NCBI GenBank assembly: GCA_036381435.1
Contig: DASVCW010000045.1
Location: 54,616-118,615 of the forward strand
Direction: 5' to 3'
Source of the DNA: Balneolaceae bacterium
Lineage (GTDB): Bacteria; Bacteroidota; Rhodothermia; Balneolales; Balneolaceae
Length of the DNA: 64,000 nt
The translations under genes and the position numbers were made by a program. Positions 821-31,504 of this stretch are shown piece after piece; positions within the stretch are counted from its first letter, which is position 1; the number at the start of each line of letters is the position of its first letter. A model generated the notes under the pieces. That model searched no databases. It saw only the letters and a program-made list of their open reading frames with translations, and had not been told where the DNA came from.

Positions 821-832
821 GCGAGAGCAACC

Positions 833-2513: not shown

Positions 2514-2548
2514 AAAATAGCCCCTGTTGTTACAACAGGGGCTATTTT
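2514..2548. other. perfect 17-bp inverted repeat (1-nt centre), possible terminator or protein-binding palindrome
   Basis: aaaatagcccctgttgt-t-acaacaggggctatttt. Confidence 0.55.
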
Positions 2549-2691
2549 ATCCAAAATGACTAATCATTAAGGGAGAGACTACTTGAAACGTTTTTTATAG
2601 TCAGTGAAGCTTTGGGTATGAAATTATTTCTGGAAATGATAATAAACTTCGGTACCGCAATAGAATTGAGGGAATAAGAAGAAGTAGAACA

Positions 2692-3336
2692 ATGATTAAA
2701 ATAATACTTGCTGATGACCATCCGCTGGTACGTGAAGGAGTTGAAAAAGTGCTTAAAAATGAAGACTTACATTTTGAGTTACGTTCTGTTGCAGATTCAA
2801 AAGAACTTATGAATCAATTAGAAAACGAACTGCCGGATTTATTGATTTTAGATATTGCCATGCCTGGCAAAAGCGGTCTGGATATTTTGAAAGAAGTACA
2901 CCAGAAGTATGAAGAATTGCCGGTATTGATGCTTAGCATGCATCCCGAAGAGCGGTTTGCAGTACGGACGATCAAATCGGGTGCCTACGGTTATTTGAAT
3001 AAAAGAAGTGTAACAGAAGAACTGGTTCAGGCCGTGAAAACAATCGTAGAAAAAAAGAAACGGTACATCAGCGAATCTGTAGCCGAACAGCTTGCCCTGG
3101 ATATCAATTCCGATCATTTGGATGCTCCACACGAGAAATTGTCTGATCGGGAATTTCAGGTGATGCGAAATATAGCGGCAGGTAAAAAGGCAAAAGAAAT
3201 AGCTGAAGAACTTAATTTAAGTGTTCGCACCATTCATACATATCGGCTGAGAATGATGGAAAAAATGAATCTTAAATCGGATGTAGCCATCACCCGTTAT
3301 GCAATGGCGCATCATTTAATTGATGATGAGCCTTAA
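2692..3336 (+). CDS. second NarL/FixJ-family response regulator, paralog of 833..1471
   Basis: Same REC and LuxR motifs; shares 'DIAMPGKSGLD.LKEV' and 'LPVLMLSMHPE.RFAVR' with the first copy. Confidence 0.95.
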   Translation: MIKIILADDHPLVREGVEKVLKNEDLHFELRSVADSKELMNQLENELPDLLILDIAMPGKSGLDILKEVHQKYEELPVLMLSMHPEERFAVRTIKSGAYGYLNKRSVTEELVQAVKTIVEKKKRYISESVAEQLALDINSDHLDAPHEKLSDREFQVMRNIAAGKKAKEIAEELNLSVRTIHTYRLRMMEKMNLKSDVAITRYAMAHHLIDDEP

Positions 3337-3591: not shown

Positions 3592-4626
3592 ATGGAAGAC
3601 GTGAAAAGCAGAGATTCCAAACTAAAACAATTTGATCATTCGTCGGGCGGGAGTAAAAAGCCTGTTCTTATCACTCAAAATCCCATTATGAAGGAGCTTG
3701 TCTCCAAAATAAAGCTGGTGGCGAAAACCAAAGCAACACTGCTTATCACCGGAGAGAACGGTACGGGAAAAGAAGTGCTGGCACGTTTGGTTCACTACTA
3801 CAGTTCCCGGAGTAAAAAGCCAATGGTTACTATTAATTGTGGAGCTATTCCGTCTGAATTGGTTGAGAGTGAGCTGTTTGGACATGAAAAAGGGGCTTTT
3901 ACCGGTGCTCAGGGCCAAAAGGAAGGCTGCTTTGAGTTAGCTCATAACGGTACTTTATTTTTAGATGAAGTTGGTGAAATGTCGAAAGCAATTCAGGTTA
4001 AGTTATTGCGGGCTGTAGAATTAGGATCATTTCGAAGAGTAGGCGGCAAAGAAGAAATTAACGTTGATGTAAGCCTTATCTCTGCTACAAATAAGATCTT
4101 AATTGACCAAGTAAAGTCGGGAGATTTTCGTGAAGATTTATTCTACCGGCTGAATGTTATTGAACTTTACGTGCCTCCTCTCCGCCATCGAAAGGAAGAT
4201 ATTCCTCTTCTGGTTTCCTATTTCCTCAATCATTTTACCGACTTGTATAATATAAATGAAATTGAATTTTCTGATGAATGCATGGCTATGTTTATGGCTT
4301 ACGACTGGCCGGGTAATGTACGCGAATTAAAAAATATTGTGGAACGCTGTGTAGTTTTATCGGGGGGAGAAAATATAGGTCCGAATTCTATTCCATCACG
4401 CATTCACCGGGGTGAAAATATTTACCCGGTTTGTAACGGTAACGGCCTTAATAATGTGATTCAAATTCCTATAGGTACCAGTTTAGAAGAAGTAGAACGA
4501 AGAGTTATTGACCAAACGCTTTATTCGGTTGATAATAATAAAACAGAAGCGGCCAAGATTTTAGGCTTCAGCAGAAAAACACTTCATAATAAGCTGGATA
4601 AATATGGACGAAGCAGTAATGCATGA
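3592..4626 (+). CDS. sigma-54-dependent enhancer-binding activator (AAA+ plus Fis HTH) with no N-terminal regulatory domain
   Basis: Walker A 'GENGTGKE', 'ESELFGHEKGAFTGA', Walker B 'LFLDEVGE', 'FREDLFYRLNV', 'WPGNVREL', C-terminal 'NKTEAAKILGFSRKTLHNKL'. Confidence 0.95.
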   Translation: MEDVKSRDSKLKQFDHSSGGSKKPVLITQNPIMKELVSKIKLVAKTKATLLITGENGTGKEVLARLVHYYSSRSKKPMVTINCGAIPSELVESELFGHEKGAFTGAQGQKEGCFELAHNGTLFLDEVGEMSKAIQVKLLRAVELGSFRRVGGKEEINVDVSLISATNKILIDQVKSGDFREDLFYRLNVIELYVPPLRHRKEDIPLLVSYFLNHFTDLYNINEIEFSDECMAMFMAYDWPGNVRELKNIVERCVVLSGGENIGPNSIPSRIHRGENIYPVCNGNGLNNVIQIPIGTSLEEVERRVIDQTLYSVDNNKTEAAKILGFSRKTLHNKLDKYGRSSNA

Positions 4627-7195: not shown

Positions 7196-7656
7196 GTTAG
7201 GCTTTATTTTTTTGGGGTTTAGTAAGACAGAAAAAGCCGTTCTTTCCTGTCTTGCCGTTAAGTAGATGTAAATTTAAAAGAAACAGTGAGCTACAATATT
7301 GCTGACATTTCTTTGTCGAAAAATATTGCAGTTGCTTTGCACCAATTAACACAAGCATGTTGCGTTAATTATTACAAAGATCTTTCATACCCGCGCAATC
7401 AAAAAGTTGTTCCCAAACTATAGATAATATTAAGCTTAGACGTGCTGCTTCTTCTGCCTTCGTAAAAAGATGGCTTACAAAGATTTACAGTTCAGGAAGC
7501 AGGGAGAAGGGGAAGGAAGAAGAAAAAAAATCGAAAAAAAATTAAAACTTTTTAGAAAAAGGTGTGCATTTTCGTGTTCATATTGTTCGCATGCAAACGT
7601 AATAACAGTTGAAAGGGCTTGTAATAAATATTGAAGATCAGGGTAATATTTTGAAC

Positions 7657-7693
7657 AAAAAAAGCCCCTTCCGAAGAGAAATCCGGAAGGGGC
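7657..7693 (-). terminator. Rho-independent terminator after the second GH5
   Basis: Minus strand: gccccttccg-loop-cggaaggggc followed by 7 T. Confidence 0.8.
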
Positions 7694-7796
7694 CTGGGTT
7701 GTGCCGTCTGATAAAATGGAGGAGAGAAAGTCTTAAAAATTTAAGCTCCTTTCATATTCACCCGACCGCAAGACCACGCCCGGATGGTAAGACTTT

Positions 7797-9056
7797 TTAT
7801 AGCTTATTCATCTGCTCTGTATGTGTAACAAATTCATTATATAATACTTCATCACCTCTTCCGCCGGGCCAGCAGATATTGCCGCCATACTCCTTACATT
7901 TTGTTTTATCGGCTGTAAGCTGCCATAGAAGACTTCCATCAAGCTTAATTCTTTCAGCCTGATCCCAAAGATTGTAATAAAAAGTCTCAACCTGGCTGTT
8001 GCCCCAGCCCGGAAATCCATATTCGCCCAGTACAAAAGGCTTGCCGAGGTTTTCCGCAATTTGAACATGATCGTTTATCCACGCGCGTTGAGATTTCATC
8101 ATCGCCTCGTTGACCTCTTCGCCTAATCCCCACTCCGTTGGATACCAGTGAGCGGTTCCATAATCAATCTCGGGAATAGCAGTATTCATCTTATAGCTGG
8201 TGCCCCTCTTAGCGCGAAGAACATAGGTACTGCTATATTGATCGGCAGAATATTCAGGCGGAACTCCTTCATCAAATCCCTCTTCGCCGGTTGCCACCAT
8301 ATGATTGGAATCAATAGATTTTATATATCGCGCAATCTCCTGGTACCAGTCTCTTAACTCTGCGGCAGTCCCTTTAGGCAAACGACCTTCATTTATGATC
8401 TCCCAAGAGAAGATAGCGGGGGAGTTTTTATATTTCACTCCTGTTACCGTGTTAGTTCTATTCAACAGCATTTTGATATAATCCTTGTACCACCGCTGAG
8501 TATCGGGATCGTTAATGAAATGTTTCATACCCGCATTCGGATGGCCATCCCATTCGTTGTACTGGCGTATACCGCCTAACTGTTTCCAAAAATTTGTAAG
8601 GGTGATGATAAAGCGAATCCCATGCTTTTTGCCCTGGGCGATTACCTTATCAAGATAGCGCAGTGCCTGTTCGTTATACTGACCCGGTTTGGGTTGTATG
8701 GTGATGTCGTTATTGTATTGGGGAGGGCCGTCATAAAATCCCCACATGCGAACTACTTTTATTCCGGACTTTTTAAAAAGGTCGAAGGTTTTACTTACTA
8801 ATTGAGGATTTATCTTTTGGTAGTTCGGTAAGTAGTAAGCATTGGTTCCGGAAAAATGGAAGCGCTCACCGTTAAGAACAAAATTCCCATTTTTAGCGCT
8901 TACAAAAGATCCGCTTACAGGATCAGAAACTTCAGGGAGAGGAGAGGGTTTTTTAGGCGCATCAACCGCCCGGTTTGATTCTGTTCCGGTTAAAGAATCG
9001 CATTGCACAAAAGTGAGTACCATCAATAAGGTTACAAGTATGTTGATAATTCTCAT
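7797..9056 (-). CDS. GH5 glycoside hydrolase (mannanase-like) lipoprotein
   Basis: Lipobox 'LTFVQC'; 'WEIINEG' and 'VLGEYG' catalytic motifs; paralog of 5069 and 9836. Confidence 0.88.
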   Translation of the reverse strand: MRIINILVTLLMVLTFVQCDSLTGTESNRAVDAPKKPSPLPEVSDPVSGSFVSAKNGNFVLNGERFHFSGTNAYYLPNYQKINPQLVSKTFDLFKKSGIKVVRMWGFYDGPPQYNNDITIQPKPGQYNEQALRYLDKVIAQGKKHGIRFIITLTNFWKQLGGIRQYNEWDGHPNAGMKHFINDPDTQRWYKDYIKMLLNRTNTVTGVKYKNSPAIFSWEIINEGRLPKGTAAELRDWYQEIARYIKSIDSNHMVATGEEGFDEGVPPEYSADQYSSTYVLRAKRGTSYKMNTAIPEIDYGTAHWYPTEWGLGEEVNEAMMKSQRAWINDHVQIAENLGKPFVLGEYGFPGWGNSQVETFYYNLWDQAERIKLDGSLLWQLTADKTKCKEYGGNICWPGGRGDEVLYNEFVTHTEQMNKL

Positions 9057-9372
9057 ATTAATAAATTATAATTTGTTGGATAGTATTTTGTTTAGTTTTA
9101 TTACCACCATGTAACTATAATAATTACAACATATTGTGCGTAAATTCTTACATAGTAAATTTTTTTATTTTACAAAGTATGATGGAGATAAGAGACAAAA
9201 GAATAGAAGAATAAATGAGGGGATTTTTGCCATTTTTAATGGAAGCAGAAGAGGGGAGAGAATTTTGAAAAGGGAGTGGGATTCTAAAACTATGAGCGTC
9301 GGTATCTATAAACGAAAGAGTCATTTAGTAGGATGGGTTGCCAACCCGGCGAAGGAAAGAGTAACTATTAAC

Positions 9373-9657
9373 TTAACGTGAGTTCGAGATAAGATTATTT
9401 CTGCATAAAATCCCGAAGGGATTGAACGTGAATAGCCCCGAATAGGCCGAAGGCATAATTCGGGGTTAAAAAAATAACATGACAAACCCCAAAGGGGTTG
9501 AACCTGCCCGTGTATTCAACCCCTTTGGGGTTGTGGTAGCGCCTGTATTAAATCACCGGATTTTATCCGGTGCTATTCACATTAAAGCCCTTCGGGTTTG
9601 ATTTTGTGCAATAATAATTTAACCAGATCATAGTTGCTTATCTTGAACTCACGTTAA
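9373..9657. mobile_element. non-autonomous element, family B (TIR TTAACGTGAGTTCGAGATAAG) carrying a palindromic cargo
   Basis: 21-bp terminal inverted repeats with 1 mismatch; internal cccgaagggattgaac...aacccctttgggg...caccggattttatccggtg; second copy at 25821..26123. Confidence 0.75.
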
Positions 9658-9810
9658 AATAGAAGTGTAAACCATGTCCCGGAACACCTGTAAAGGATGT
9701 TCCCGGTCTATAGATGGAGAAGGGTCAGGGGGATTGAAAAACCAAGATCTCGATCTATGATGTAAAACCCTATCCCTGCTGCCCAGAACAAATAGCACAA
9801 CGCTTGTAAC

Positions 9811-9834
9811 TGTCGGGCAGGATGCCCGACCTAC
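9811..9834 (-). repeat. GTAG-type REP hairpin
   Basis: Minus strand GTAG-GTCGGGCA-TCC-TGCCCGAC directly after the GH5 stop. Confidence 0.65.
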
Positions 9835-9835
9835 A

Positions 9836-11080
9836 TCAACCCGACACCCCGTTTGTTACGTTATTAATATGAACAGTGAACTCTTGGTACAACCGCTGGT
9901 CGCGGCGAGCGCCCGGCCAGCAGATATTACCGCCGTATTCGTAACATTTTATATGGTTGGTGGTAAGTTGCCACAGCAAGCTGCCGTCGAGTTCAATCTT
10001 TTCTGCGTAAGCCCAGAGATGGTTATAAACCTCCAGGACGCTCTCATCACCCCAGCCAGAGAAGCCATATTCGCCCAGCACAAATGGTTTGCCCAGCTCA
10101 GCGGCAATTTTAGCGTGATCATAAATCCAGGCGCGTTGAGCTTTCAGTAAATCGGCATCGGCTTTATGGCCAAAGCCCCAGCCGTTCGGATACCAGTGGG
10201 CCGTTCCATAATCAATTTCCGGGATTGCGGTATTTAAAATGTAGCTGCTGCCAATACCCGACCTTAGCACATAAGTGTTGGAATATTGATCAACGGAATA
10301 GGGGGAAGCGGGGGAATTCATTTTCACTTCCTGACCTTCTTCACCGGTCGCAACCATGTGATTGGGATCGATGGATTTTATGTATTGAGCAATTTCGCGA
10401 TACCAGTCCCGCAATTCGGTAGGATCTCCATCAGGCAGGCGGCCTTCATTCATAATTTCCCAGGAAAAGATAGCCGGCTCGTTTTTATATTTCACTCCTG
10501 TTACGGTATTGGTGCGATTGAGTAACATTTTGATATAATTCTTATACCATCGCTGGGTATCCGGGTCGTTGATGAAATGCTTCATGCCTGCATCGGGATG
10601 TCCGTCCCACTCATTATACTGAGGTACGCCGCCTAATTCTTCCCAGTAATTTATCAGGGTGATGATAAAACGAATACCTCGTTTTTTGCCCATTGCGATG
10701 AGCTGATCAAGATAGCGCAGGTTTTCTTCACTGTAAGCACCGGGCCGGGGCTGCAAGGTGATGTCATTTTCGAACTGGGGAGGTCCGTCATAAAATCCCC
10801 AAGTTCTGACTACCGTAATTCCCGCTTTTTCAAAGATATCAAGTGTCTTTTCAACAAATTCAGGTTTTATTTTTTGATAGTTGGGAAGGTAATAGGCATT
10901 GGTACCTACAAAGCGAAATTTATGTCCGTTAATTACAAAATCATTGCCTTTGGCTTGTACAAAAGCGTCTGGAAATTTTTTAGTTAGCGGAACACTACTT
11001 TTAGCAGCCGGAGCTCCCTGATTAAACAACTGGATGAACAAAAGTAAAAGCGGTGCCAAATATGTCTTTAAAAAAGCCAT
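9836..11080 (-). CDS. GH5 glycoside hydrolase (mannanase-like), signal peptide without lipobox
   Basis: Hydrophobic N-terminus without Cys; 'FVGTNAYY', 'WEIMNEG', 'VLGEYG'. Confidence 0.88.
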   Translation of the reverse strand: MAFLKTYLAPLLLLFIQLFNQGAPAAKSSVPLTKKFPDAFVQAKGNDFVINGHKFRFVGTNAYYLPNYQKIKPEFVEKTLDIFEKAGITVVRTWGFYDGPPQFENDITLQPRPGAYSEENLRYLDQLIAMGKKRGIRFIITLINYWEELGGVPQYNEWDGHPDAGMKHFINDPDTQRWYKNYIKMLLNRTNTVTGVKYKNEPAIFSWEIMNEGRLPDGDPTELRDWYREIAQYIKSIDPNHMVATGEEGQEVKMNSPASPYSVDQYSNTYVLRSGIGSSYILNTAIPEIDYGTAHWYPNGWGFGHKADADLLKAQRAWIYDHAKIAAELGKPFVLGEYGFSGWGDESVLEVYNHLWAYAEKIELDGSLLWQLTTNHIKCYEYGGNICWPGARRDQRLYQEFTVHINNVTNGVSG

Positions 11081-11145
11081 AATGAATAATCGAATTTAAG
11101 GTTCAGAATAAGAAACTGATTTGTTTATATTTATTTTTTTGTCAA

Positions 11146-11315
11146 TCAACGTGAATTCGATACAAAAAATGGCTTCCAAAAGAGGTCTCAGCTTGGGGGT
11201 GTTCAGGTCGAAGTTCGCCACCCGGACACCTCGAATGGCACATTGTACGCTTTGCCATTCACTCCTGCCGGCTGACGGAAAGACCTTTCCTTCTCTGATC
11301 TCGACCTCACGTTAA
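11146..11315. mobile_element. family B-type terminal inverted repeats enclosing a different, highly structured cargo
   Basis: tcaacgtgaattcgata ... gatctcgacctcacgttaa flank a GC-rich multi-stem sequence. Confidence 0.55.
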
Positions 11316-11350
11316 CTATAAAACCGTTTCAGCTTATATCAATTTCATGT

Positions 11351-12388
11351 TTATTTAGGTGATACATTCTGGTAAATAAATTCTTTATAAAAGGATGGAG
11401 GTATTACATTATATCCTCTCTTAATTTTTTCAATTTGTGAAGGTTCTAATTCATAGCTCCATTTATCAATTTCCTGCCGGCTTATTCGCTTTGTACTATA
11501 GCCTTTCCCTTTTTTATTTAAAGCATCAATCTTATCATCAATCGTATCAGACCAGTCAAGGTTTAGCTGTTTATATAGTTTCTTGAATTTCTGTTTAGGA
11601 TGTAAACATACATCCTCGTGCTTAACCACACTCCAATCAGGATTTTCCTTTATTTGGCAGGCTAAAATATAGTAGAAGATCGCTACCTGTGCGCCGGCTT
11701 TTTCCAGGGGGTCTTTTAAGGCATAAATTTTATCAATATATGGTTGAAGATAATCATCAACCAGCGCCTTTTGAATGATGAGATTTCTGTTAATATCAGG
11801 ATTCTTGATTCTTAAATGACTGGATATGATACTTGCGGGATGCCGGAGAATGATTAAAACTTTTGTGTTAAAAACGGATCGAAGGTTTGCTAATGCAAGC
11901 AGACAATGAACCGATTTAATCAGCGGGATTTTTTTGTGCCTGTTGAACCTTACAAAAAGTTGAAGAAAGGTATAAAACATCGTTGCCAGCTTTAGGCGTA
12001 AGTTTTGGCTTGTGGTTTGTATCCGTATGCTATTTGCAGTTGCTTGCTCAGGATTGCACTTTTGGTATATTTCACGCTCGGCTGTAGCTAAATTTATATT
12101 TAACAGTTTTTTTATAGCCAGGCTTGGTTTCGAATATTCATGGATATAATGGTCGGAAATCGCTTTCCTAAAAATGGTGTATAACCCATTATTACTGTTA
12201 TCGGCTTTTAAGTAGGGAAAGCGGTGCAAATGCTGCTTGTGTATATAACCCAGAAGATTATTATGTTCATTATCCGGTTCATAGTAACCCTTAACTTTAT
12301 CGGAATAACACAAAACTTCTGCAATCCATGAAGTGCCGGATCTGGGAATACCGGTTACTAAAATCATATCCCTTTTTTCTTTTTCCAT
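11351..12388 (-). CDS. PAPS-dependent sulfotransferase
   Basis: 5'-PSB loop 'GIPRSGTSW' and 3'-PB 'IILRHPASIISS'; start placed at ATG 12388 (ORF track uses GTG 12409; ATG 12367 also possible). Confidence 0.85.
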   Translation of the reverse strand: MEKEKRDMILVTGIPRSGTSWIAEVLCYSDKVKGYYEPDNEHNNLLGYIHKQHLHRFPYLKADNSNNGLYTIFRKAISDHYIHEYSKPSLAIKKLLNINLATAEREIYQKCNPEQATANSIRIQTTSQNLRLKLATMFYTFLQLFVRFNRHKKIPLIKSVHCLLALANLRSVFNTKVLIILRHPASIISSHLRIKNPDINRNLIIQKALVDDYLQPYIDKIYALKDPLEKAGAQVAIFYYILACQIKENPDWSVVKHEDVCLHPKQKFKKLYKQLNLDWSDTIDDKIDALNKKGKGYSTKRISRQEIDKWSYELEPSQIEKIKRGYNVIPPSFYKEFIYQNVSPK

Positions 12389-12469
12389 ATGTAATATTGC
12401 TAAGTGCACCAGTTCTCTTGTTGAAGATGGTTTTACTGAATTAAGAGCGTTAAAATGAATCTAACCGAA

Positions 12470-12654
12470 GGCCATCCTCCGGACCCCCTTCGAAGGGGAT
12501 GTAGGCTCCGCTGATGATATCAGCGGATTGGCTAATAGCATTAGTCACAAAAAAATTAGAATGACCAAAATAAGAATTATTGTAAATAATTCGGTTTAGC
12601 TCTCCCTTTTTCCAAATGAATCCCTACGGGAGAAGGGGGACTAAGGGGATGGCC
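12470..12654. repeat. family A modular palindromic element
   Basis: ggccatcc...ggatggcc ends with the same three internal hairpin modules as 4674..4849. Confidence 0.8.
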
Positions 12655-12690
12655 AAATCGCAAGTTCAACAACCATTTTTTACCCCTTAC

Positions 12691-13899
12691 TTACTTAAAA
12701 GCAGATTTTTTAACGGCCTGAAGCAGGGGATCATTGACTTCACGCAAACGACTTTGAAAATAAGCGCCTCCTAATTCCCAAAGCATCACCCCGCCCAGCC
12801 TTTCTCTTTTCACGTATTCAATTTTATGTTCGATTGATCGTTCATTTTCAAAAGAAATAAAAGCCATCGGTTCTTCAAGATTTAAATAGGGAACTTTAGC
12901 ATGTTCATCCCATAAAGCCTCATCAAGGTTGAACCGGCGGCTAAGTTCGGTAAACGGGATGCCTTCGGGACGCTCGAAAATTGAGGTGTCTTGTAAGGGC
13001 CAGCTTTCCCATTTTCCCATAAAATGAACAGAATTCCATCGATAGCCATAAAAATTGATTCCGATGCCGATTTTGTTTCGCTCAATGCCCAAGTCAATGG
13101 CTTGCTCAATTATTTGACTTATACTCGGGAAAAGCTGCTGAGAGTTTTCAAAATTATATTTTTGGTTAAATAAAGCCGAATTATGCCACGCTTGCCAGCC
13201 TCTTAAGGGCTGAGCCATGTTATAAGTCATTATGTTTATCTGCTCAAAATAATCCTGAAGCGACGCATGCAGGCTAAGGGCGCTTACGTTGGCTGATGTA
13301 GCCGCCGTTATCATTAATTCTTCATCTCTTATATTTTCAAGAGCAGTAAAAGTAGCATCCAACTGGATTACAAGCTGCCGGTAATTATCATAGTCGCTTT
13401 CTTCGAGCGGATTCATGTTTAAACTGACACCGTCAAAATTATAAACAGTGATCATATTTATGATAGTGTCAATAAGCTGAGCCCGGTTAGTATCGTTAAT
13501 AGCACTGCTAAAGCCATCGTAATTATCGCGGCCGCCTACGGCAAACAGAATTTTAGTATCATTGGTATGGGCGGCAGGCACAATAGATCGTAACTTAGCC
13601 GCATTGAAAACAGCATCAGAATCAAGGCTGTCTTCCGGTGTTCCGTCAGGTGCGACAGACAGCGTAAAATATGTTAAATGCGTCATTGCGTCCCAGTCGA
13701 TATTTCCTGTGCCGATGGAACCGTTGGCCGCGTTAATACCAATATTATGTTGCCGGGCCGCGAGATAACCGTTTACCCAGATACCTTCATTTCCGGTGAT
13801 ACCCGAATTATTTTGAAAAAGACCACAAGACGTAACGATTAAAGCAGTACAGACTGCTAAAATGCTTTGCATAATCGTCTTGAGATACATTTTTTCCAT
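12691..13899 (-). CDS. GH18 chitinase-fold lipoprotein, catalytic motif degenerate
   Basis: Lipobox 'LIVTSC'; 'KILFAVGG', 'IMTYNM', 'GINFYG', 'KIEYVKRERLGGVMLWELG'; DxDxE motif reads 'FDGVSLNMN'. Confidence 0.85.
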   Translation of the reverse strand: MEKMYLKTIMQSILAVCTALIVTSCGLFQNNSGITGNEGIWVNGYLAARQHNIGINAANGSIGTGNIDWDAMTHLTYFTLSVAPDGTPEDSLDSDAVFNAAKLRSIVPAAHTNDTKILFAVGGRDNYDGFSSAINDTNRAQLIDTIINMITVYNFDGVSLNMNPLEESDYDNYRQLVIQLDATFTALENIRDEELMITAATSANVSALSLHASLQDYFEQINIMTYNMAQPLRGWQAWHNSALFNQKYNFENSQQLFPSISQIIEQAIDLGIERNKIGIGINFYGYRWNSVHFMGKWESWPLQDTSIFERPEGIPFTELSRRFNLDEALWDEHAKVPYLNLEEPMAFISFENERSIEHKIEYVKRERLGGVMLWELGGAYFQSRLREVNDPLLQAVKKSAFK

Positions 13900-13926
13900 C
13901 TTTATTTATGTTCTTCCTAACCATGA

Positions 13927-15864
13927 TTAAAAGTACGAGATGGTAGGTTCGTTCAAATGTTTTGAAATTTTATTTTTAGCTTCGGTACCGTTTAAAATAC
14001 TTTTTAAGCGTATGTGCAGACGTTTTATCGTTATCCCTTTGGCTTCTGCCAGCTTTTTCATACGGTTAAAGTTTTCGGCTTTAATATCCTCATCGCATAT
14101 AAAAATGCAGTCCACTTCCATATTTCGCAGCGTCTTCGAGAGTTTCCAGTAGCCGCCCAAAACCGGGTAGCCGTAGATTAACTTTCCTTCCATATCGCAG
14201 TCGTCATCCAGAAAACCAAGCACTTTAAATTTACTGTTCGATGAATTATTGATTTTATGCAAAATCATCGTTCCATTTTCATTAGCGCCGTAAATGAGTA
14301 CGTTTTCCCCCGTTTTTTTATAACGGTTAAACCAGTAGCTTAAAGCCTGGTAGGCAATGCGAATTCCTAAGGTGAAGGTCAGCAGGAGGTAAAAATCGAG
14401 GACCAAAAACTGGAGTGCCGAGATAAAGGGAAATCCATCCATCACAAGAAGGGCACAAGCGGTTCCGAAAACGGCATAAACGACCGAAGAGGTAATTTTT
14501 AACACATTGCCAATACCCATTTGTTTAATTTTTTCACGGTAGAGGCCTGTTATCCAGAAGGTAAAGAGCTGGACGGAAATCACCATAATCATGACCTGTT
14601 CAAAATTCAGAAACTGTACTGAAGACGGGTTGATGCTGTATAAAAGCTTATAGCTTAGCATATAAGAAGCGGCAACAAAAATGAGATCAATCAAACCTAA
14701 GAACATCGCGCGGTTTAAAATCCACCGCTCATAAATGGGCAGCATCATCCCGTTATTAAAAATGGCAATTTCACGATAGCGCAGTTTTTTTATACCATGG
14801 AAAAGCACAAATCCCAGCATCAGCCCGATAATCAACAGCATTTCTATATTATCAACTTGAGTGATGGCAAAAGCACCCAGCGCAAAAAAAGCGGACACAA
14901 AATAAAGCAGCAATACGGTGTTTCTGTGGGTTAGCCCCAGGGAAAGCAGCTGGTGATGAATATGGGAGCTATCGGGCGTAAACATTTCATGAAGTTTGCC
15001 GGCCAAAGATTTGGACTTCTCTTTTGACCGCTCGGGCATATATCCCCCTAAGAATCTCCGTAGCATCGAAATTAAAGTATCGGTGATGGGAAATCCAAGT
15101 ACGAGCATGGGAAAGAGCAGAGCAAAACCGGTAGAAATTTTAGTAGTGCTTTGAATAGACATTAGCGCCATCGAAAAGCCGATAAACAGGCTCCCCGAAT
15201 CACCTAAAAATATTTTGGCGGGGCTAAAATTATAGCGCAGAAAACCGACTAAAGCCCCTGCCATAACAAGCGCTAAGGCAGCGATTAAAAATTCACCTGA
15301 AAGAGCGGAAACCGTAAATATGGATATACTGGCGATGGTAGCAACACCCGAGGCAAGTCCGTCAAGGCCATCAATCAAATTAAAGGCATTGGTGATGCCT
15401 ACAATCCACAAAAGGGTGAGGGGAAAGTCGATCATTTCGACATTCAGCATTCCGCTTCCCACGGGATTTGTGATATTTGATATTTTAAAACCGGCGAAAT
15501 AAACAGCGGCTGCTATTATAAACTGGACGCCGAATTTTATGCCCGGTTTTAAAGGTTTAAGGTCATCCCAAAAGCCTAAAAGAAAAATGCCTAAGAAGCA
15601 GAACGGGATGATATATACTTGCCAATCGGCAGCTTCTAAATGACTGGCAAGCTCCGGAAAAATGATAAAAATCAAACCGACAGACACGATGGCACTGCTA
15701 AAAACAGCTAAGCCACCCAGTCGCGGTGTTACCGAGGTATGAATTTTTCGTCCACCGGGATTATCAACGGCATTAATTTGCAGGGCAAATTTAACAACCC
15801 AGGGTGTTATTATGAGAGACAGAATAACAGGTATGATGAACGATGTAATAAATTCTGCAGACAT
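13927..15864 (-). CDS. WecA/TagO (MraY-like) undecaprenyl-phosphate sugar-1-P transferase fused to extra TM helices and a Rossmann-like domain
   Basis: 'RKIHTSVTPRLGG', 'LGFWDD', 'NAFNLIDGLDGLA', 'FLGDSGS', 'HIHH'; C-terminal 'VLIYGANENG...LGFLDDD...GYPVLG'. Confidence 0.88.
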   Translation of the reverse strand: MSAEFITSFIIPVILSLIITPWVVKFALQINAVDNPGGRKIHTSVTPRLGGLAVFSSAIVSVGLIFIIFPELASHLEAADWQVYIIPFCFLGIFLLGFWDDLKPLKPGIKFGVQFIIAAAVYFAGFKISNITNPVGSGMLNVEMIDFPLTLLWIVGITNAFNLIDGLDGLASGVATIASISIFTVSALSGEFLIAALALVMAGALVGFLRYNFSPAKIFLGDSGSLFIGFSMALMSIQSTTKISTGFALLFPMLVLGFPITDTLISMLRRFLGGYMPERSKEKSKSLAGKLHEMFTPDSSHIHHQLLSLGLTHRNTVLLLYFVSAFFALGAFAITQVDNIEMLLIIGLMLGFVLFHGIKKLRYREIAIFNNGMMLPIYERWILNRAMFLGLIDLIFVAASYMLSYKLLYSINPSSVQFLNFEQVMIMVISVQLFTFWITGLYREKIKQMGIGNVLKITSSVVYAVFGTACALLVMDGFPFISALQFLVLDFYLLLTFTLGIRIAYQALSYWFNRYKKTGENVLIYGANENGTMILHKINNSSNSKFKVLGFLDDDCDMEGKLIYGYPVLGGYWKLSKTLRNMEVDCIFICDEDIKAENFNRMKKLAEAKGITIKRLHIRLKSILNGTEAKNKISKHLNEPTISYF

Positions 15865-15891
15865 AAATTTTGAATTACGCTATTTATTTTT

Positions 15892-16728
15892 TTACAGAAA
15901 TAATTTATTTCCATCAAATTCATAAGGCAGCTGCCAGCTCATTGAAAAGGGCAAGTGCTTGCATTCAATGGTTTTTCCATAAGATAAAATAGCCCCTTGC
16001 AGAATGGCATTTTTAAGCTGCCTTATGTTTCCGGGCCAACTGTATTTAAAGCATTCGCAAAGGGCCTGAGCCGATATACTAAGATTTTTCCATTCACTGT
16101 TTTTCTTTTTTATTTCATCAATAAAATGATCAATAAGAACGGGAATATCTTCTTTTCGTTCGCGCAGCGGCGGCAGCATAACCACCATGGGATCTAACAA
16201 ATCCAGTATTTTGTCCCATAGGGGGGTATCGAAAATTTTGTTAAAAGATTCCTGGTTGAATGAAATAACCAGCCGCGGAATATGCGTCGTATCATAGCGG
16301 AATAACTGCTTGCTGCCTTTCAAAAATGATTTAAGGATGTTGAGCATAAACGCCGGCGGTAATTCCGAGAATTGATCCAGATATAAAATCCCACCGCTGG
16401 CTTTCTCAATGGCATCATATTTCAGAGTGATGTGTTCTTCCTCAAACTGCAAGTGTCCCCAGAAAGCATCTTTGTAGCGCTCTTCATCTACATCTACACA
16501 GTAAAATGAATAAAAAGGGCCGTTTGCGCGGTAGCTGTTTTCATGAATGATATGTGCCAGACGCTTTTTGCCGGAGCCTATTTCACCTACTACAATGGCA
16601 TTTGAGCTCAGTTTTGCCAAGCTAAGAATTTTGTAGAAAATATCACGCATCAACACACTGCGTGATGATTTTTCAACATCGGTTAATTGAGATTCCTGGA
16701 GGTGATTATGTGAGGGAGAAGCAATCAT
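15892..16728 (-). CDS. degenerate sigma-54 activator-like AAA+ domain (pseudo-bEBP), no HTH
   Basis: Walker A 'GEIGSGKK', 'PPLRERKEDIP' and 'WPGNIRQLKN' present; GAFTGA absent, Walker B reads 'LYLDQ', no Fis HTH. Confidence 0.85.
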   Translation of the reverse strand: MIASPSHNHLQESQLTDVEKSSRSVLMRDIFYKILSLAKLSSNAIVVGEIGSGKKRLAHIIHENSYRANGPFYSFYCVDVDEERYKDAFWGHLQFEEEHITLKYDAIEKASGGILYLDQFSELPPAFMLNILKSFLKGSKQLFRYDTTHIPRLVISFNQESFNKIFDTPLWDKILDLLDPMVVMLPPLRERKEDIPVLIDHFIDEIKKKNSEWKNLSISAQALCECFKYSWPGNIRQLKNAILQGAILSYGKTIECKHLPFSMSWQLPYEFDGNKLFL

Positions 16729-17729
16729 CTTATTTGACCGAGGTGTAAAGTTAAAGTTAACTGATGAAAACGCTCATACAAATCATTATCATAAGAGATG
16801 GCGTAGTCTAATTCTATGAAATCACTGATAATACCTATTCCAAATCGCGGGGCCACAACCTCTGTTGCAGATTGAATCATAATGCCCGCCCGCAACGATA
16901 AAAAAGACCAGGGCCGGGCATCTACACCTGCTTTATACCAGATACCGTCCAGGCCAAACCTTTTCTCATTAGCCATTGAAATAACCATATAAGGATCGCG
17001 GGTGTTGACCGGAAAGCGCATAGTAGCGCCCAGTTCCAGAACCTCCCGTAAATTTTGACTTACAAGGGCTGTACGTCCTCCCGAAATAAATCGGTAAATC
17101 ACACTTCTTCCGAGTCCGCGGAATGATAAACCATAACTGACAGACTGAGACGGCGAGTATAAAAGGCCTAAAGTAACAAAGGATGTCCAGTACTGAGCCT
17201 GGCTTTCGTTATTGTTTTGGGCAAACGAAATATTATTCATAATACCCAGGCTTAAAACTCCGTCAATGGTATAAGCGTAAGCCAGGTCTAATTGATATTG
17301 AGTGATGCTTGGCTGAGGCAAGGGGCTTGTTCCCAAGAAATTAGTGGCTGTTATTCCACCGTGATGCATGCCAAATTGTGCCGCAAAAGTGTGCTGAGAT
17401 GAAGCAAAAAGTGGAAAAGTTATATTTTCCAGCATCAGGTTATTGTTCCAGTTTTGGTATATATTAAACTGTACTGCATTTAAATTTTTGACGAATGCGA
17501 GCGAAGCGGGATTCATGTTGATAGCCATCAAATCATGAATCCCTGCTACGGTGGCATTTCCCAGAGCAGTAGTTCGGGCGCTGAATTTATAAACGCGTGG
17601 CGCTCCCCTGATGCCGCTCTCTGTATTGGTAGGATCCGTAATTTGCGCTTTTGATTCTGCAGGAAAAATAAAGGCAAAGAGAATGCTGAGGCTTAAAAAA
17701 AGACAATATTTCAAAAATATTTTCATCAA
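16725..17729 (-). CDS. PorV/FadL-like outer-membrane beta-barrel protein
   Basis: Signal peptide, 'SARTTALGNATVA...MNPASLA' resembling the PorV N-terminal motif, then alternating amphipathic beta-strand pattern; 4-bp overlaps with both neighbours. Confidence 0.65.
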   Translation of the reverse strand: MMKIFLKYCLFLSLSILFAFIFPAESKAQITDPTNTESGIRGAPRVYKFSARTTALGNATVAGIHDLMAINMNPASLAFVKNLNAVQFNIYQNWNNNLMLENITFPLFASSQHTFAAQFGMHHGGITATNFLGTSPLPQPSITQYQLDLAYAYTIDGVLSLGIMNNISFAQNNNESQAQYWTSFVTLGLLYSPSQSVSYGLSFRGLGRSVIYRFISGGRTALVSQNLREVLELGATMRFPVNTRDPYMVISMANEKRFGLDGIWYKAGVDARPWSFLSLRAGIMIQSATEVVAPRFGIGIISDFIELDYAISYDNDLYERFHQLTLTLHLGQIR

Positions 17730-18442
17730 TTAACTACTCTAAAAATTCCAAATAACAGAACAATATCTCGCAGAAACTGCGAGGTTTCCCGGATTACATT
17801 TTGTTCTTCTGGCACGTAAACTACATCGCCGGGGTAAACTACTGCCGCGGGATTAGCGCGCCCTCCATCCAAATATTGGGTTAAATCGATAGTAACATTA
17901 TGTAAATCTTCCATTGACCCCGAAGGTTTTCTGTAAATTCTAACATTCCTGAGATCGGCTTGTTCTGATGGCCCGCCCGCCATAGAAAGAACTTTAAAAA
18001 GGGATGCCTTATCTACGACCGGATAATTATCGGGCCGGCTTACCATCCCAAAAACTGATACCAGCATATCATCGGTGCTGCGAACAGAAACCGTTAGATT
18101 GATGTCGCTTTTAATATAGCGCGAGAGCTCCTGTCTTAGTTTTTGTTTAAGTTCATCATTTGTCATACCGGCAACGTTAATTTCACCAATTAACGGCATA
18201 ACAATGGTGCCCATACTTGATACGGTAGTTGAGGTATTAAAATTTGGCTGCTGCCATACCAGAATTTCAACTTGATCACCCGGACTGATTTCATAGAGTG
18301 AATCTACCGGTGCTACATAAATTTGTTCTTCAGTCAGCTCCCGGGCAGTTTTTTCCTGAATATTCCGTGAAGAGATACATCCCTGTAGCAGCAGATAAAA
18401 GCTTGCAACAGCACATAGTTTTAAAATAGTTGTAGTTCTCAT
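17726..18442 (-). CDS. wza: polysaccharide export (OPX/Wza-family) lipoprotein, short form
   Basis: Lipobox 'LLLQGC'; PES motif 'YEISPGDQVEILVW...GTIVMPLIGEINVAGMT'; SLBB 'GMVSRP...AGG...ADLRNV...PGDVVYVP'. Confidence 0.9.
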   Translation of the reverse strand: MRTTTILKLCAVASFYLLLQGCISSRNIQEKTARELTEEQIYVAPVDSLYEISPGDQVEILVWQQPNFNTSTTVSSMGTIVMPLIGEINVAGMTNDELKQKLRQELSRYIKSDINLTVSVRSTDDMLVSVFGMVSRPDNYPVVDKASLFKVLSMAGGPSEQADLRNVRIYRKPSGSMEDLHNVTIDLTQYLDGGRANPAAVVYPGDVVYVPEEQNVIRETSQFLRDIVLLFGIFRVVN

Positions 18443-18500
18443 CTTGTTGATTATGTATTCGGCTTATAATTATTAAAGCTTGGCATTTTCTTAAGGAGTG

Positions 18501-18518
18501 TTACAACAAATGTGCCAA
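18501..18518 (-). promoter_or_regulatory. sigma-54 -24/-12 promoter for the wza operon
   Basis: TTGGCACATTTGTTGTAA on minus strand, about 60 bp before the wza ATG. Confidence 0.7.
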
Positions 18519-18817
18519 TCTAATTTTTATAACTTATTTACCGTTTAAAATTAGTTTAAATAGATCTTATTTCTCCTATATGTCATCCGGTGGCCTTGAA
18601 CTCCGGGGAAGATAGGCTTTCAAATATGATAAAGGCAGGTATCGAAATTAAGGTAAAAGCGGTATCAGTGTTTGAGATCGCTTACATCCGTTCCGGATGA
18701 CTTAAGGAGGAGATTTTTAAGGCGGTAGACAGGTAGTCTTATAAATAAAAGGGATTGTAGCCAGAGGGAGAAGCCATAAGAGAGGTAATTCAAGCAGAAA
18801 AGAGAAGGTGTTTATTG

Positions 18818-18834
18818 TGTGAATATATTTCACA
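18818..18834. promoter_or_regulatory. candidate activator-binding site (TGT-N11-ACA)
   Basis: TGTGAA-TATAT-TTCACA between the divergent sigma-54 promoters; weaker partner site at 18854..18870. Confidence 0.45.
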
Positions 18835-18980
18835 TAAAAGATTTAAAGCTTTGTGTAATTATGTTTCATGATATGCAAAGTTCTATTTGAATTTGAATAT
18901 CTGCTGTCACCGTTTTTTTTTAGCCATGCCATATGCAAAAATTAAGCAATCTGAATCATTTTTAAGAGATTTTAAAAGGT

Positions 18981-18998
18981 TTGGCATAGCTATTGTAC
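18981..18998 (+). promoter_or_regulatory. sigma-54 -24/-12 promoter for the wzc-wzy-wzx operon
   Basis: TTGGCATAGCTATTGTAC, 50 bp before the start at 19048. Confidence 0.7.
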
Positions 18999-19047
18999 TA
19001 CTAATCTTTCAAAAACAGACTATTAATCCTGAATCAATCCTACACAC

Positions 19048-20379
19048 GTGTTTACAATTCAAGAAGTGATCCAGAAAATAAAGGCGGTGATAAAACGTCG
19101 AAAAAAGCTGCTAATACTTATCCCAGTCTTTTTTCTGTTCCTTAGTATTGCCGCACTCCAGGTAATTGAGCCAACCTATGAATCATCAATCACTATTTTA
19201 GTAGAGCAGGATGAAATGCCCATACTTGATATATATAATGTGAATGGCGGTTACAGGCCTCCCAACAGGCTGGAACAGTTCGGCAAGATTATTTATAGCC
19301 GTTCTGCAATGGAAATGCTGATCGACAGTCTTCATTTGGGTGACAGTATTCAAACCATAGCGCAAAAACAAGGTCTTATTGCCGGTTTAAAAAACAGTAT
19401 TACTACCAGCTCCGAAGACGGAAGTTCATTTGAAATAGCATTTTCAAGTGGCGATCCGGTTCGGGCACGAGACGGCGCTGCTTTGCTGGCTCAATTTTAT
19501 ATTAATACACGGTCTCGTTTCGAGAGCAAAGAGAAAAACGAGACGGTTGAATTTCTTGAAAACAAGCTGGCCGAAATTGAAACAATTGTTGAGCAGAGGA
19601 GAGAAGAAATTGTGAGTTCTACAGCTCAGCAAATACAAGAGGTAGCGGTTAATCCGGAGGTGATGCAAAACCGCCTCGAAACAATAAGTACACGTATTCA
19701 GGAGGTTGACCTGTCAATTTATCAAACCGAGACGAAGGTTAATATTCTGGAGGAATTTCTTAATCAGCCGGAAGATAGTTTTTCCATGCTTCCGCTATAC
19801 CGGTTATCACTTGAGGAAATTCCCAATGGGGAACCTTTAACCGACTTATTAAGTAGATATGATACTTTAAGTCAACAGTACACAGAGAATTTTCCGGGCC
19901 TCCAAAATACGAGAGAGCAGATCATTGAGGTTGCCGCCCGTATTAAACCGGCCATTGAATCGAATTTGTCAATTTTAAGAAGGCAAAGGCAAGAGCTTAA
20001 TGCCGAGCGCCAGAGAATCATTCAGAATTTGGAACAATCTTATGTTGCTTCGCAGCGAAGTACCGGCGATCAATCTAGATTCAGCATCTATCAGGAGCTT
20101 TATGATGCTATAAAGAAAAAGCTTGAACAAGCACGTATAAATCGTGAGATGGGCAATAAAACATCAGATCAATTTATTGTCTTAGACCCCCCCGTTATAT
20201 CAGAAACTCCAACTTCACCCAATAAACCATTGGTGATTGGTGCCGGACTCGGGCTGGGGCTGATTATAAGTTGCCTGATGGTAGGCTTTGCTGAAGTAAT
20301 GGATACTACTATTCGTAGCGAGGAAGATCTTAAACTCAACAAACCTATAATTGCATATCTTAAAGATGGAAGAGAATAA
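19048..20379 (+). CDS. polysaccharide co-polymerase (Wzz/GumC/Wzc periplasmic part)
   Basis: N-terminal TM followed by 'PTYESSITILV', long coiled coil, 'VLDPPVISETPTSPNKPLVIGAGLGLGL' second TM. Confidence 0.9.
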   Translation: MFTIQEVIQKIKAVIKRRKKLLILIPVFFLFLSIAALQVIEPTYESSITILVEQDEMPILDIYNVNGGYRPPNRLEQFGKIIYSRSAMEMLIDSLHLGDSIQTIAQKQGLIAGLKNSITTSSEDGSSFEIAFSSGDPVRARDGAALLAQFYINTRSRFESKEKNETVEFLENKLAEIETIVEQRREEIVSSTAQQIQEVAVNPEVMQNRLETISTRIQEVDLSIYQTETKVNILEEFLNQPEDSFSMLPLYRLSLEEIPNGEPLTDLLSRYDTLSQQYTENFPGLQNTREQIIEVAARIKPAIESNLSILRRQRQELNAERQRIIQNLEQSYVASQRSTGDQSRFSIYQELYDAIKKKLEQARINREMGNKTSDQFIVLDPPVISETPTSPNKPLVIGAGLGLGLIISCLMVGFAEVMDTTIRSEEDLKLNKPIIAYLKDGRE

Positions 20380-21109
20380 TTCGAAGATTGTTTTATCGAA
20401 AAAGGAAAAAATGGAAGTTCATGAAGAGTCTCCGATTATAGAGGGTTCTTCGTTCTTTGATACATCACTGGTTCCTATGACTATTTCGGAGGATCAAACC
20501 GATTTTGTTGATCCCGATATAGTGAACCGGAAGTATTATAACAACTTCAATTTTTCTAAACTTACCACCAAATACGGCAATGTAAACTTAGCTTTGGGCA
20601 TTACCAGTGCGAATCCGAAAGAAGGAAAAACGCTGGTAGCAAGCAATATGGCCGTTTCTTTGGCCCGGGCATACCGGCAGAGAACAATACTGGTGGATCT
20701 AAATTTTCAAAATCCGCAGCTACACAAAATATTCGGCACCAGGTTAAGGCCGGGACTAATTGAAGCGATGCAAACACGTGCCTTACAGGTTTCTCCCACT
20801 TTGATTGATGATCTGTATTTGCTCGCCGCGGGTGATAATTCCCGTTATTCACCGGATATAAAAGACACTATTGCATTACGGGAAATTTTCTTCACCCTTA
20901 AAAATGAATTTGATTTCGTGGTTGTAGATATGGGTTCCATTTTTCCTATAGAAGACTTCCCCGTGCACTTTTTTAATGAAGTTGACGGTTTGATAACGGT
21001 GATAGATGCCCAGAATACCAAAGAAGAACATCTAAAAAATATGTACAAGCATATTGATGAAAAGCATTTTATCGGCTACATCTTTAATCGTTTTGAAGGT
21101 ATCGAATGA
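20351..21109 (+). CDS. CpsD/CapB-type bacterial tyrosine (BY) kinase
   Basis: Walker A 'TSANPKEGKT', A' 'ILVDLN', B 'VVVDMG'; no C-terminal Tyr cluster. Confidence 0.85.
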   Translation: MHILKMEENNSKIVLSKKEKMEVHEESPIIEGSSFFDTSLVPMTISEDQTDFVDPDIVNRKYYNNFNFSKLTTKYGNVNLALGITSANPKEGKTLVASNMAVSLARAYRQRTILVDLNFQNPQLHKIFGTRLRPGLIEAMQTRALQVSPTLIDDLYLLAAGDNSRYSPDIKDTIALREIFFTLKNEFDFVVVDMGSIFPIEDFPVHFFNEVDGLITVIDAQNTKEEHLKNMYKHIDEKHFIGYIFNRFEGIE

Positions 21110-21270
21110 TAATTCTGTTCGGCATAATCTTTTTTCACATGCTTGTAATTATCTGCAGTAGAATCAGCGGTAAAAAAGGGGTGCCGTATATTCCTACAAC
21201 GGTAATAACGGTAGTGCTGGTTCTGTTTGTGGTTTTTATGATGTATACGATGGAAAAACCACAACCCTGA
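21106..21270 (+). CDS. small two-TM membrane protein (54 aa), absent from the ORF track
   Basis: ATGA overlap with the kinase stop; MIILFGIIFFHMLVIICSRISGKKGVPYIPTTVITVVLVLFVVFMMYTMEKPQP. Confidence 0.7.
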   Translation: MIILFGIIFFHMLVIICSRISGKKGVPYIPTTVITVVLVLFVVFMMYTMEKPQP

Positions 21271-31398: not shown

Positions 31399-31416
31399 GT
31401 GCAATTAGTATGCCAA
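31399..31416 (-). promoter_or_regulatory. sigma-54 promoter for the sxtJ-sxtK-carbamoyltransferase-SGNH operon
   Basis: TTGGCATACTAATTGCAC, consensus match, 42 bp before the ATG. Confidence 0.8.
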
Positions 31417-31487: not shown

Positions 31488-31504
31488 TGTAACTTTTTTT
31501 CACA
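31488..31504. promoter_or_regulatory. candidate activator-binding site (TGT-N11-ACA)
   Basis: TGTAAC-TTTTT-TTCACA about 70-90 bp upstream of the 31399..31416 promoter. Confidence 0.4.

Follow-up and report, generated by a model that had tools for sequence, protein, structure and literature searches.

A sigma-54 activator that lacks a sensory domain is always switched on, and its restraint has to come from a factor acting in trans. To our knowledge, the known brakes PspA, HrpV, NifL and FleN are proteins unrelated to the activator. This report concerns gene X, the third of the co-directional genes wza, porV-like, X and wecA-like in a polysaccharide locus of a soil Balneolaceae bacterium. Its product resembles, in a degenerate form, the AAA+ domain of bacterial enhancer-binding proteins (bEBPs), and it may restrain a receiver-less bEBP that is encoded nearby. 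The window is the whole stretch of 64,000 nucleotides that was analysed (contig DASVCW010000045.1, positions 54,616 to 118,615), and the coordinates given below are positions in it.

The nearest described protein is FleT of Rhodobacter (Cereibacter) sphaeroides, which has been stated to be the only known bEBP without both regulatory and DNA-binding domains (PMC7175178). Like X, FleT is an AAA+-only member of the bEBP family with neither of these domains. The operon of FleT is driven by its partner FleQ from a sigma-54 promoter, and FleT acts by forming hetero-oligomers with FleQ (PMC7277832, PMC10084136). However, published accounts present FleT as a second activator, required alongside FleQ for the remaining flagellar promoters, whereas X, set against this description, is without GAFTGA, Walker B Glu and Arg fingers and would so be unable to remodel sigma-54. 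FleT belongs to an alphaproteobacterial flagellar hierarchy and X to a Balneolaceae polysaccharide locus. In Pseudomonas syringae, HrpR and HrpS are receiver-less bEBPs and unequal, partly degenerated paralogues, with the regulon-encoded inhibitor HrpV acting on the AAA+ domain, and this system indicates that 'partial paralogue degeneration' can create control (PMC3105312). Unlike X, both HrpR and HrpS keep GAFTGA-type loops and the helix-turn-helix (HTH) domain, and activation depends on the two together; HrpV does not belong to the AAA+ proteins, whereas in the case of X the paralogue itself would be the inhibitor.

Another likeness is found in PspF, a receiver-less activator restrained by PspA, a protein of the operon that PspF activates from a sigma-54 promoter; this is established knowledge, to which passages of two of the papers refer (PMC3105312, PMC10084136). 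PspA itself has no relation to AAA+ proteins, being an ESCRT-III-like coiled-coil protein, and no PspA-type Pfam match to X was found. For RedR1/RedR2 of Aromatoleum anaerobium, it has been demonstrated experimentally that the inactive form inhibits the active one via hetero-oligomers of the central domains (PMC10084136). These two proteins differ from X in being near-identical, full-length and fully competent bEBPs, and their inactivity is conditional and not hard-wired. NtrX, VpsR and TyrR are built on the bEBP AAA+ fold but do not have GAFTGA; the first two rank high among the sequence and structure matches of X, and VpsR controls exopolysaccharide genes (PMC6158489). In contrast to X, which has neither domain, these three keep DNA-binding domains and usually receivers, and they act at sigma-70 promoters. 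In the literature searched, no described example of a bEBP paralogue without both GAFTGA and a DNA-binding domain was found, FleT being the nearest, and nothing was found on sigma-54 or exopolysaccharide regulation in Balneolaceae.

The gene and the basis of its assignment are as follows.
15892..16728, minus strand: gene X, a pseudo-bEBP of 278 aa with a degenerate bEBP-type AAA+ domain and lid, without receiver and without HTH (open reading frame and translation, Pfam, PDB matches, AlphaFold2 model with Foldseek)

The open reading frame is intact and begins with ATG, and in the ATGA at 16725-16728 this start codon overlaps the stop codon of the upstream PorV/PorQ-like gene by 4 bp. The initial annotation of this DNA had given the coordinates, the intact frame and a 4-bp overlap correctly, without naming the minus strand. 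In the protein, the AAA+ domain and lid are flanked by 23 residues at the N-terminus and a tail of 18 residues, and there is neither a regulatory nor a DNA-binding domain. Pfam gave a partial match to Sigma54_activat (PF00158, profile positions 5-116 of 168, 54.7 bits) and a match to AAA_lid_14 (PF25601, 74 bits). HTH_8 was not matched at E up to 0.01, the chain stopping at residue 278, 18 residues past the lid, and in the X-clade representative P0121 no HTH_8 match appeared even at E up to 1. The closest solved relatives in a PDB sequence search were NifA, ZraR, NtrX, NtrC1, FleQ, VpsR and PspF, with phmmer matches to NifA, ZraR and NtrC1 at E 1e-29 to 1e-20. The AlphaFold2 model has a mean predicted local distance difference test (pLDDT) value of 79.6, and bEBP AAA+ domains superpose on it at a template modelling (TM) score of about 0.6 in Foldseek, the structures matched including the ATP-bound Walker-B mutants PspF E108Q and NtrC1. 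On sequence and predicted fold, X is a pseudo-enzyme paralogue of the bEBP AAA+ domain; it has the clade-6 AAA+ fold and the lid, and is a homologue of the central domain of bEBPs.

The motifs of X were read by alignment to solved bEBPs and to the presumed partner activator of the window, whose gene starts at 3592 (the 3592 protein). With X as query, a protein search yielded over 7,500 proteins at E <= 1e-10, and the counts given here cover the best 120 cluster representatives (56-83% identity, 249-303 aa), of which all with a source name are from Balneolaceae (Fodinibius, Aliifodinibius and metagenome-assembled genomes).
16564..16587, minus strand: Walker A GEIGSGKK, residues 48-55 (sequence and alignment)
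16417..16464, minus strand: L1 hairpin region FWGHLQFEEEHITLKY, residues 89-104, in place of the GAFTGA sigma-54 contact loop (alignments)
16372..16389, minus strand: degenerate Walker B ILYLDQ, residues 114-119, catalytic Glu replaced by Gln (sequence and alignment)
16198..16218, minus strand: former Arg-finger segment WDKILDL, residues 171-177, both Arg gone (alignment to the partner)
16009..16038, minus strand: sensor II region WPGNIRQLKN, residues 231-240, kept (alignment)
15922..15957, minus strand: aromatic C-terminal tail HLPFSMSWQLPY, residues 258-269 (alignment, model and counts; low pLDDT)

The P-loop Lys54 is kept in 118/120 representatives and E49, G51 and G53 of Walker A are invariant among the 120, while the Glu that typically follows the P-loop Lys in bEBPs is Lys55 in X (K55 in 105/120); the earlier reading of Walker A as kept thus stands for the P-loop Lys and fails for the Glu of GKE. 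The L1 beta-hairpin is still present (residues 92-103 in the AlphaFold2 model), with QFEEEH at the tip where bEBPs have GAFTGA, and a GAFTGA-like motif (GA[FY]TG[AV]) occurred in 0/120. In Walker B, Q119 is found in 113/120 and Glu at the same position in 1/120, and the position of the switch Asn is taken by Tyr (Y76, 117/120). The FREDLFYRLN of the partner aligns with LWDKILDLLD of X, where the Arg-finger positions are W171, present in 118/120, and L177, a position at which Arg is not among the common residues. The Arg of sensor II (R236) is kept in 108/120. The initial annotation had read sensor II as kept and GAFTGA, the Walker B Glu, the Arg fingers and the HTH as altered or missing, and the alignments, Pfam and the counts over the representatives agree with it. 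These losses are, by the same counts, fixed family characters and not chance.

Taken as a whole, X has the AAA+ fold with lid, the P-loop and the sensor II Arg, and it lacks four features that define the function of a bEBP, namely GAFTGA, the catalytic Walker B with the switch Asn, the Arg fingers and the HTH. X is thus homologous to bEBPs but, judged by these four losses, should not be filed as a sigma-54 activator. The C-terminal tail occupies the place of the linker to the HTH in relatives and has the consensus H-L-P-F-[ST]-M-x-W-x-L-P-Y, with H258, P260, F261, W265, P268 and Y269 each in at least 113/120. Together with P151-R152, this tail is the most notable of the family-specific, near-invariant features that are new to the X clade, and it is a candidate docking motif.

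Nonsynonymous (dN) and synonymous (dS) substitution rates were estimated against an 83%-identical orthologue, because dS was saturated for orthologues at 52-66% identity, which made these unusable for dN/dS. The comparison gave dN 0.098, dS 1.94 and a ratio (omega) of about 0.05; at deeper divergence the dN of X is 0.25-0.44, with dS saturated. At one orthologous locus, X is the best-conserved gene of the operon (83%, vs 67% for wza, 67% for porV-like, 75% for wecA and 58% for the glycoside hydrolase (GH) 18 gene). X is under strong purifying selection. That X is a decaying, functionless remnant of a duplicated activator is hardly conceivable: most catalytic and contact motifs are gone, as decay would have it, but the low omega, the rank of X within its operon, at least 120 intact representatives of constant length with new family-specific invariant residues and transcript evidence from a soil metatranscriptome all speak against it. 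The initial annotation had named dN/dS as one of the checks on its pseudo-activator reading, to be abandoned if orthologues showed neutral decay; such decay is essentially excluded by the omega value and by the fixed residues in the 120 representatives. As for the transcripts, in the soil metatranscriptome run X6, contigs 90-95% identical to window positions 12600-21200 cover X and both gene junctions, and the same run also covers wecA, wza (to 18471) and the kinase-like gene. An operon closely related to that of X appears to be expressed in soil, with DNA carry-over in the library as a possible source of these contigs.

An exhaustive profile search over 1.84 billion representatives, in which the X clade collapses to one representative (404 bits), revealed a second tier of 307-333-aa proteins at 160-240 bits, with ordinary bEBPs lower, at about 145-155 bits. 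Three features unite the second-tier proteins, namely the P-loop, QLKN in sensor II and a Trp where the Arg finger used to be; GAFTGA is absent in all second-tier sequences examined, and an 'AFTG' remnant is seen in some. Across this superfamily, which is apparently centred on Balneolaceae, the Walker B pair varies widely (DN, EH, DG, EG, NA, DA, NG, KD, DS, EC, KN, NN and EN). Because the pair is variously degenerate, catalysis is probably dead across the whole group, and for the same reason the Gln is no conserved mechanistic requirement, and to take it for an 'ATP trap' in the X clade would go too far. The G/E/G/K of the P-loop is invariant even among superfamily members at 28-43% identity, which suggests that nucleotide binding is retained in X. 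Profile matches of 600-1000 aa with 2-3 matching stretches were considered as tandem X-like relatives and rejected; these are ordinary tandem bEBP domains with GAFTGA and DE, and their totals are summed scores. In public annotation, the X-family proteins P0024, P0026, P0064, P0084, P0295 and others are named 'sigma-54-dependent' or 'sigma 54-interacting transcriptional regulator' or 'DNA-binding NtrC family response regulator'. For proteins of the X family, a sigma-54 regulator name is probably wrong, given that they have no GAFTGA and no catalytic Glu and, in the X clade, no HTH or receiver.

A P-loop so strongly conserved despite dead catalysis would also suit a sensor of a small molecule or second messenger, with X relaying the signal to the bEBP or to the polysaccharide machinery in the way that the AAA+ domains of FleQ and VpsR serve for cyclic di-GMP. 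Both FleQ and VpsR regulate exopolysaccharides and turned up as structural matches of X, and VpsR is without the sigma-54 contact residues (PMC6158489). In the alignment, the post-Walker-A positions of X read as H59/I60. FleQ presumably uses Arg/Asn at these positions, and we count this difference against a sensor role, which also overlaps the other explanations and seems very unlikely.

Many second-tier members have a C-terminal Fis-type HTH. The HTH_8 scores run from 33.6 bits in P0129 through 24.2 in P0156, 20.9 in P0135, 17.7 in P0140 and 12.3 in P0144 to no HTH_8 score in P0142, P0123, P0137 and X; P0129 and P0156 exceed the cut-off, and one HTH-bearing member comes from Gracilimonas (Balneolaceae). 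The HTH-bearing P0140 and P0135 and the tail-degenerate P0123 hold a slot identical to that of X (wza, barrel, X-like, wecA-like), and HTH-bearing relatives in this slot had gone unnoticed in the first reading of the window. Because relatives in the same operon slot carry a Fis-type HTH, the ancestor was probably a DNA-tethered bEBP-like protein that was already catalytically dead, and the clade of the window then shed the HTH and kept all else. The HTH is lost progressively among relatives in this slot, and the conserved function would therefore need no DNA binding.

The presumed partner of X is encoded on the opposite strand.
3592..4626, plus strand: presumed partner, a 344-aa receiver-less canonical bEBP (N-terminus of about 25 residues)

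The 3592 protein has GENGTGKE, GAFTGA, FLDE, Arg fingers (FREDLFYRLN), sensor II (WPGNVRELKN) and a Fis-type HTH. Locus context was taken from exact-protein look-ups; the loci of a contig scan (L001-L080) were discarded, since the patterns RERKEDIP and YxWPGN..QL also match ordinary bEBPs. Orthologues of the activator in 9 loci are 53-76% identical, of the same architecture and with the recognition helix SRKTLHNKL in common. The activator is convergent with X and 46-226 bp apart from it in L081, L085, L086, L087, L090 and L091, and it lies 6-11 kb from X in the window, L082 and L094; in the remaining loci, the contigs end too early to show whether an activator is near. The wza and barrel genes are not upstream of X in L081, L085, L086 and L090, and the activator is still beside it. 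In L091, the pair stands among unrelated genes (TPR, gcpE, rhomboid), while elsewhere the surroundings are an rnc-fabF-acpP block. X therefore has two conserved associations, with the export operon and with the activator, and the activator link survives the loss of the operon link. The genomic coupling to the 3592 activator, which the initial annotation had put forward for a co-occurrence check, is thus supported by an orthologue adjacent to or near X in 9 loci, one with unrelated surroundings. X is 27% identical to the 3592 protein and not nearer to it than to NifA or ZraR; that X is a recent duplicate of the neighbouring activator was considered and cannot be claimed at this identity. In the window, a HisKA_3 histidine kinase and two NarL/GerE-type response regulators (119-3336, plus strand) are directly upstream of the 3592 gene. 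Their place is taken by rnc-fabF-acpP in relatives, and the kinase and regulators could feed the expression of the activator.

Three elements between the divergent wza and wzz-like genes bear on how X would be expressed.
18502..18517, minus strand: presumed wza/porV-like/X/wecA-like operon promoter, a sigma-54-type -24/-12 element (TGGCACATTTGTTGTA) that precedes the wza start by 60-75 nt
18982..18997, plus strand: second sigma-54-type element, TGGCATAGCTATTGTA, which faces the divergent wzz-like gene (19048)
18818..18834, no strand: TGTGAA-N5-TTCACA, a palindrome flanked by the divergent wza and wzz promoters and a candidate enhancer (upstream activating sequence)

The sigma-54 promoter assumed in the initial annotation is represented by the predicted TGGCACATTTGTTGTA at 18517-18502, which is conserved across loci and has TTGT instead of TTGC at -12. 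A -24/-12 element (TTGGCACATTTGTTGT or a close variant) is found upstream of wza in every operon-type locus, and the core TTGGCACATTT[G/A]TTGT is invariant in 7 loci despite diverged flanks. Stand-alone X is preceded directly by the -24/-12 core in L081, L085 and L086 and by a variant in L090; the more distant loci have TGGCA[CT]-N5-TTG[TA]. The element on the wzz side recurs in the six operon loci whose wza-wzz intergenic region was covered, the sequence of L088 being without that side. In the metatranscriptome, a contig end at 18471 falls about 20 nt downstream of the predicted start site and weakly supports the wza promoter.

The palindrome came from a cross-locus k-mer conservation scan; a repeat search for an enhancer-like inverted repeat found none, and the arms are only 6 nt. 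As T[GA]TGAA-N5-TTCACA with 0-1 mismatch, it is present in the window, L082, L087, L088, L086, L081 and L094, it accompanies stand-alone X in L081 and L086, and in loci other than the window it lies 73-125 nt upstream of the -24 element. The exact palindrome occurs as a single copy in the 64-kb window. This geometry of palindrome and promoter is as expected of a bEBP enhancer, to which the activator would bind. The wza-wzz intergenic region of the window (18443-19047) measures 605 bp, and its counterparts in L082 and L087 about 400-420 bp; the surplus of roughly 200 bp falls between the palindrome and the wza promoter, and the wzz promoter is about 130 nt from the palindrome.

Further intergenic matches with 1 mismatch to TGGCAC-N5-TTGCW are found at 31400-31415 (minus strand), 32046-32061 (plus strand) and 47922-47937 (minus strand). 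The three matches precede, respectively, a small open reading frame with a carbamoyltransferase (28894-30753), a polysaccharide deacetylase/glycosyltransferase (GT) 1 block (32280 onward) and a WecG-type transferase (47108-47881), the last lying 41 nt downstream of its match. A degenerate copy of the palindrome, TGTAACTTTTTTTCACA, stands at 31488-31504, 73-89 nt upstream of the 31415 element. The entire polysaccharide region at 5-48 kb may be one sigma-54 regulon.

The best-supported mechanism, although we place it a little short of an even chance, is that X acts as a poison subunit or anti-activator and provides negative feedback, as the initial annotation had proposed. The receiver-less bEBP would bind the palindrome and drive the divergent wza and wzz sigma-54 promoters, and hence X too. 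X would bind nucleotide without hydrolysing it and would associate through its AAA+ domain with that of the partner, accepting Arg fingers but unable to donate them to the ATP site of its neighbour or to contact sigma-54, so that mixed assemblies of X and partner would be inactive or capped. Being made from the same sigma-54 promoter, X would therefore close a negative feedback loop, and the outcome would be a product-dependent feedback on the polysaccharide regulon. The aromatic tail may be the handle by which a further component, such as the machinery for export or assembly, captures X or sets it free. Such feedback would be functionally analogous to that of PspA on PspF and of HrpV on HrpS, but would come from a degenerated paralogue.

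Several points weigh against a brake of this kind. The sign of regulation by X is drawn by analogy only, and the low identity between X and its partner leaves neither a recent duplication nor a matched interface arguable. HrpS without its HTH lost both self-interaction and interaction with HrpR in a two-hybrid assay (PMC3105312), and an HTH-less AAA+ domain therefore need not co-oligomerise. The -12 part of the promoter is non-canonical, TTGT or TTGA vs TTGC, and in L091, the most distant pair, no such promoter was found within 400 nt upstream. In the window, about 300 nt separate the palindrome from the wza promoter, outside the 73-125 nt of the other loci. Finally, adjacency inside one bacterial family may partly reflect inherited synteny.

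The genomic coupling of X to the activator would be equally expected if X were, like FleT or HrpR, a structural co-subunit with a positive effect, one that stabilises hexamers or changes promoter choice, so that the mixed ring is active and the loop becomes a positive feedback or switch. FleT offers a precedent, since it is transcribed from a FleQ-dependent sigma-54 promoter and then acts with FleQ as a hetero-oligomer (PMC7175178, PMC7277832, PMC10084136), and mutations in the catalytic site of HrpS are tolerated within HrpRS (PMC3105312). However, HrpRS strictly needs both GAFTGA loops (PMC3105312), and mixtures of RedR1 and RedR2 work only if all are active (PMC10084136). From the AAA+ mechanism, each X subunit, without GAFTGA and both Arg fingers, would be expected to silence the neighbouring ATP site, and we consider a positive co-subunit unlikely.

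The operon around X raises a different explanation. Its other members are the following.
17726..18442, minus strand: short Wza-type outer-membrane polysaccharide export (OPX) protein, first gene of the operon, 238 aa, with Poly_export and SLBB only
16725..17729, minus strand: PorV/PorQ-like outer-membrane beta-barrel, second gene of the operon (NF033709 at 61 bits, below the cut-off; without Pfam match)
13927..15864, minus strand: WecA/MraY-type GT4 fused to a CoA_binding_3 region, 645 aa, downstream of X

The Wza-like protein and the barrel resemble an OPX protein paired with a separate outer-membrane porin, and the pair is conserved in all operon-type loci. The order with the wecA-like gene downstream of X is also found in L082, L088, L092, L093 and L094, and the fusion of GT4 to CoA_binding_3 is conserved in L082, L088 and L092-L094. 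In the WecA-like protein, the GT4 domain is N-terminal, and the C-terminal region matches CoA_binding_3 as well as positions 1-219 of 445 of TIGR03025 (exopolysaccharide polyprenyl glycosylphosphotransferase), the C-terminal half of the model being unmatched. After the wecA-like gene come GH18, sulfotransferase and GH5 genes, and the divergent side holds Wzz-like (19048), MinD/bacterial tyrosine kinase-like, Wzy and flippase genes. Between the X operon and the activator (5069-13899, minus strand) lie GH5 (two copies), a GH2-like/fn3 protein, a sulfotransferase and GH18. The GH5, GH18 and sulfotransferase insertions are similar in L082 and L094, which may point to a polysaccharide that is modified, perhaps by sulfation, and has trimming enzymes of its own.

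X holds the slot between the porin-like and wecA-like genes in 8 loci, and these include relatives at 160-240 bits, well outside the X clade. A slot so fixed, a 4-bp overlap that suggests translational coupling and a conserved flexible aromatic tail that suggests a docking motif would all fit a nucleotide-binding switch that acts post-translationally on polysaccharide assembly and export (for example on the WecA-like enzyme, a Wzc-like kinase or the OPX/porin pair), the proximity of the bEBP then being inherited synteny. Yet X stands outside the wza operon and beside the bEBP in L081, L085, L086, L090 and L091; four of these five loci keep the -24/-12 element upstream of X, L081 and L086 keep the palindrome as well, and the Fis-type HTH that relatives in this slot retain suggests descent from a protein linked to transcription. 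We consider a switch on the machinery unlikely.

Returning to X as a brake, a more specific version of it joins the activator, the relatives and the tail. X would be a natural poison or cap subunit of the receiver-less bEBP ring, hard-wired to bind ATP without hydrolysing it and blind to sigma-54, produced from the promoter that the activator drives, with a stepwise origin and with a tail that couples its release to the state of the export machinery. GAFTGA and catalysis would have been lost first and the HTH later, steps that the living relatives would record. We offer this fuller version tentatively and regard it as less likely than not.

Within one operon slot, the family of X gives a graded evolutionary series in which the HTH goes from clear through weak to none. 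If the proposal is true, a brake or modulator derived from the activator's own degenerated motor domain would represent a new way of controlling bEBPs, and X would provide a clean natural case of a bacterial AAA+ ring with a pseudo-ATPase among its subunits. The module of promoter and palindrome and the cultivable hosts Fodinibius and Gracilimonas make the idea directly testable. In the Balneolaceae, the polysaccharide locus would then be governed by a self-limiting sigma-54 circuit built from a pseudo-enzyme.

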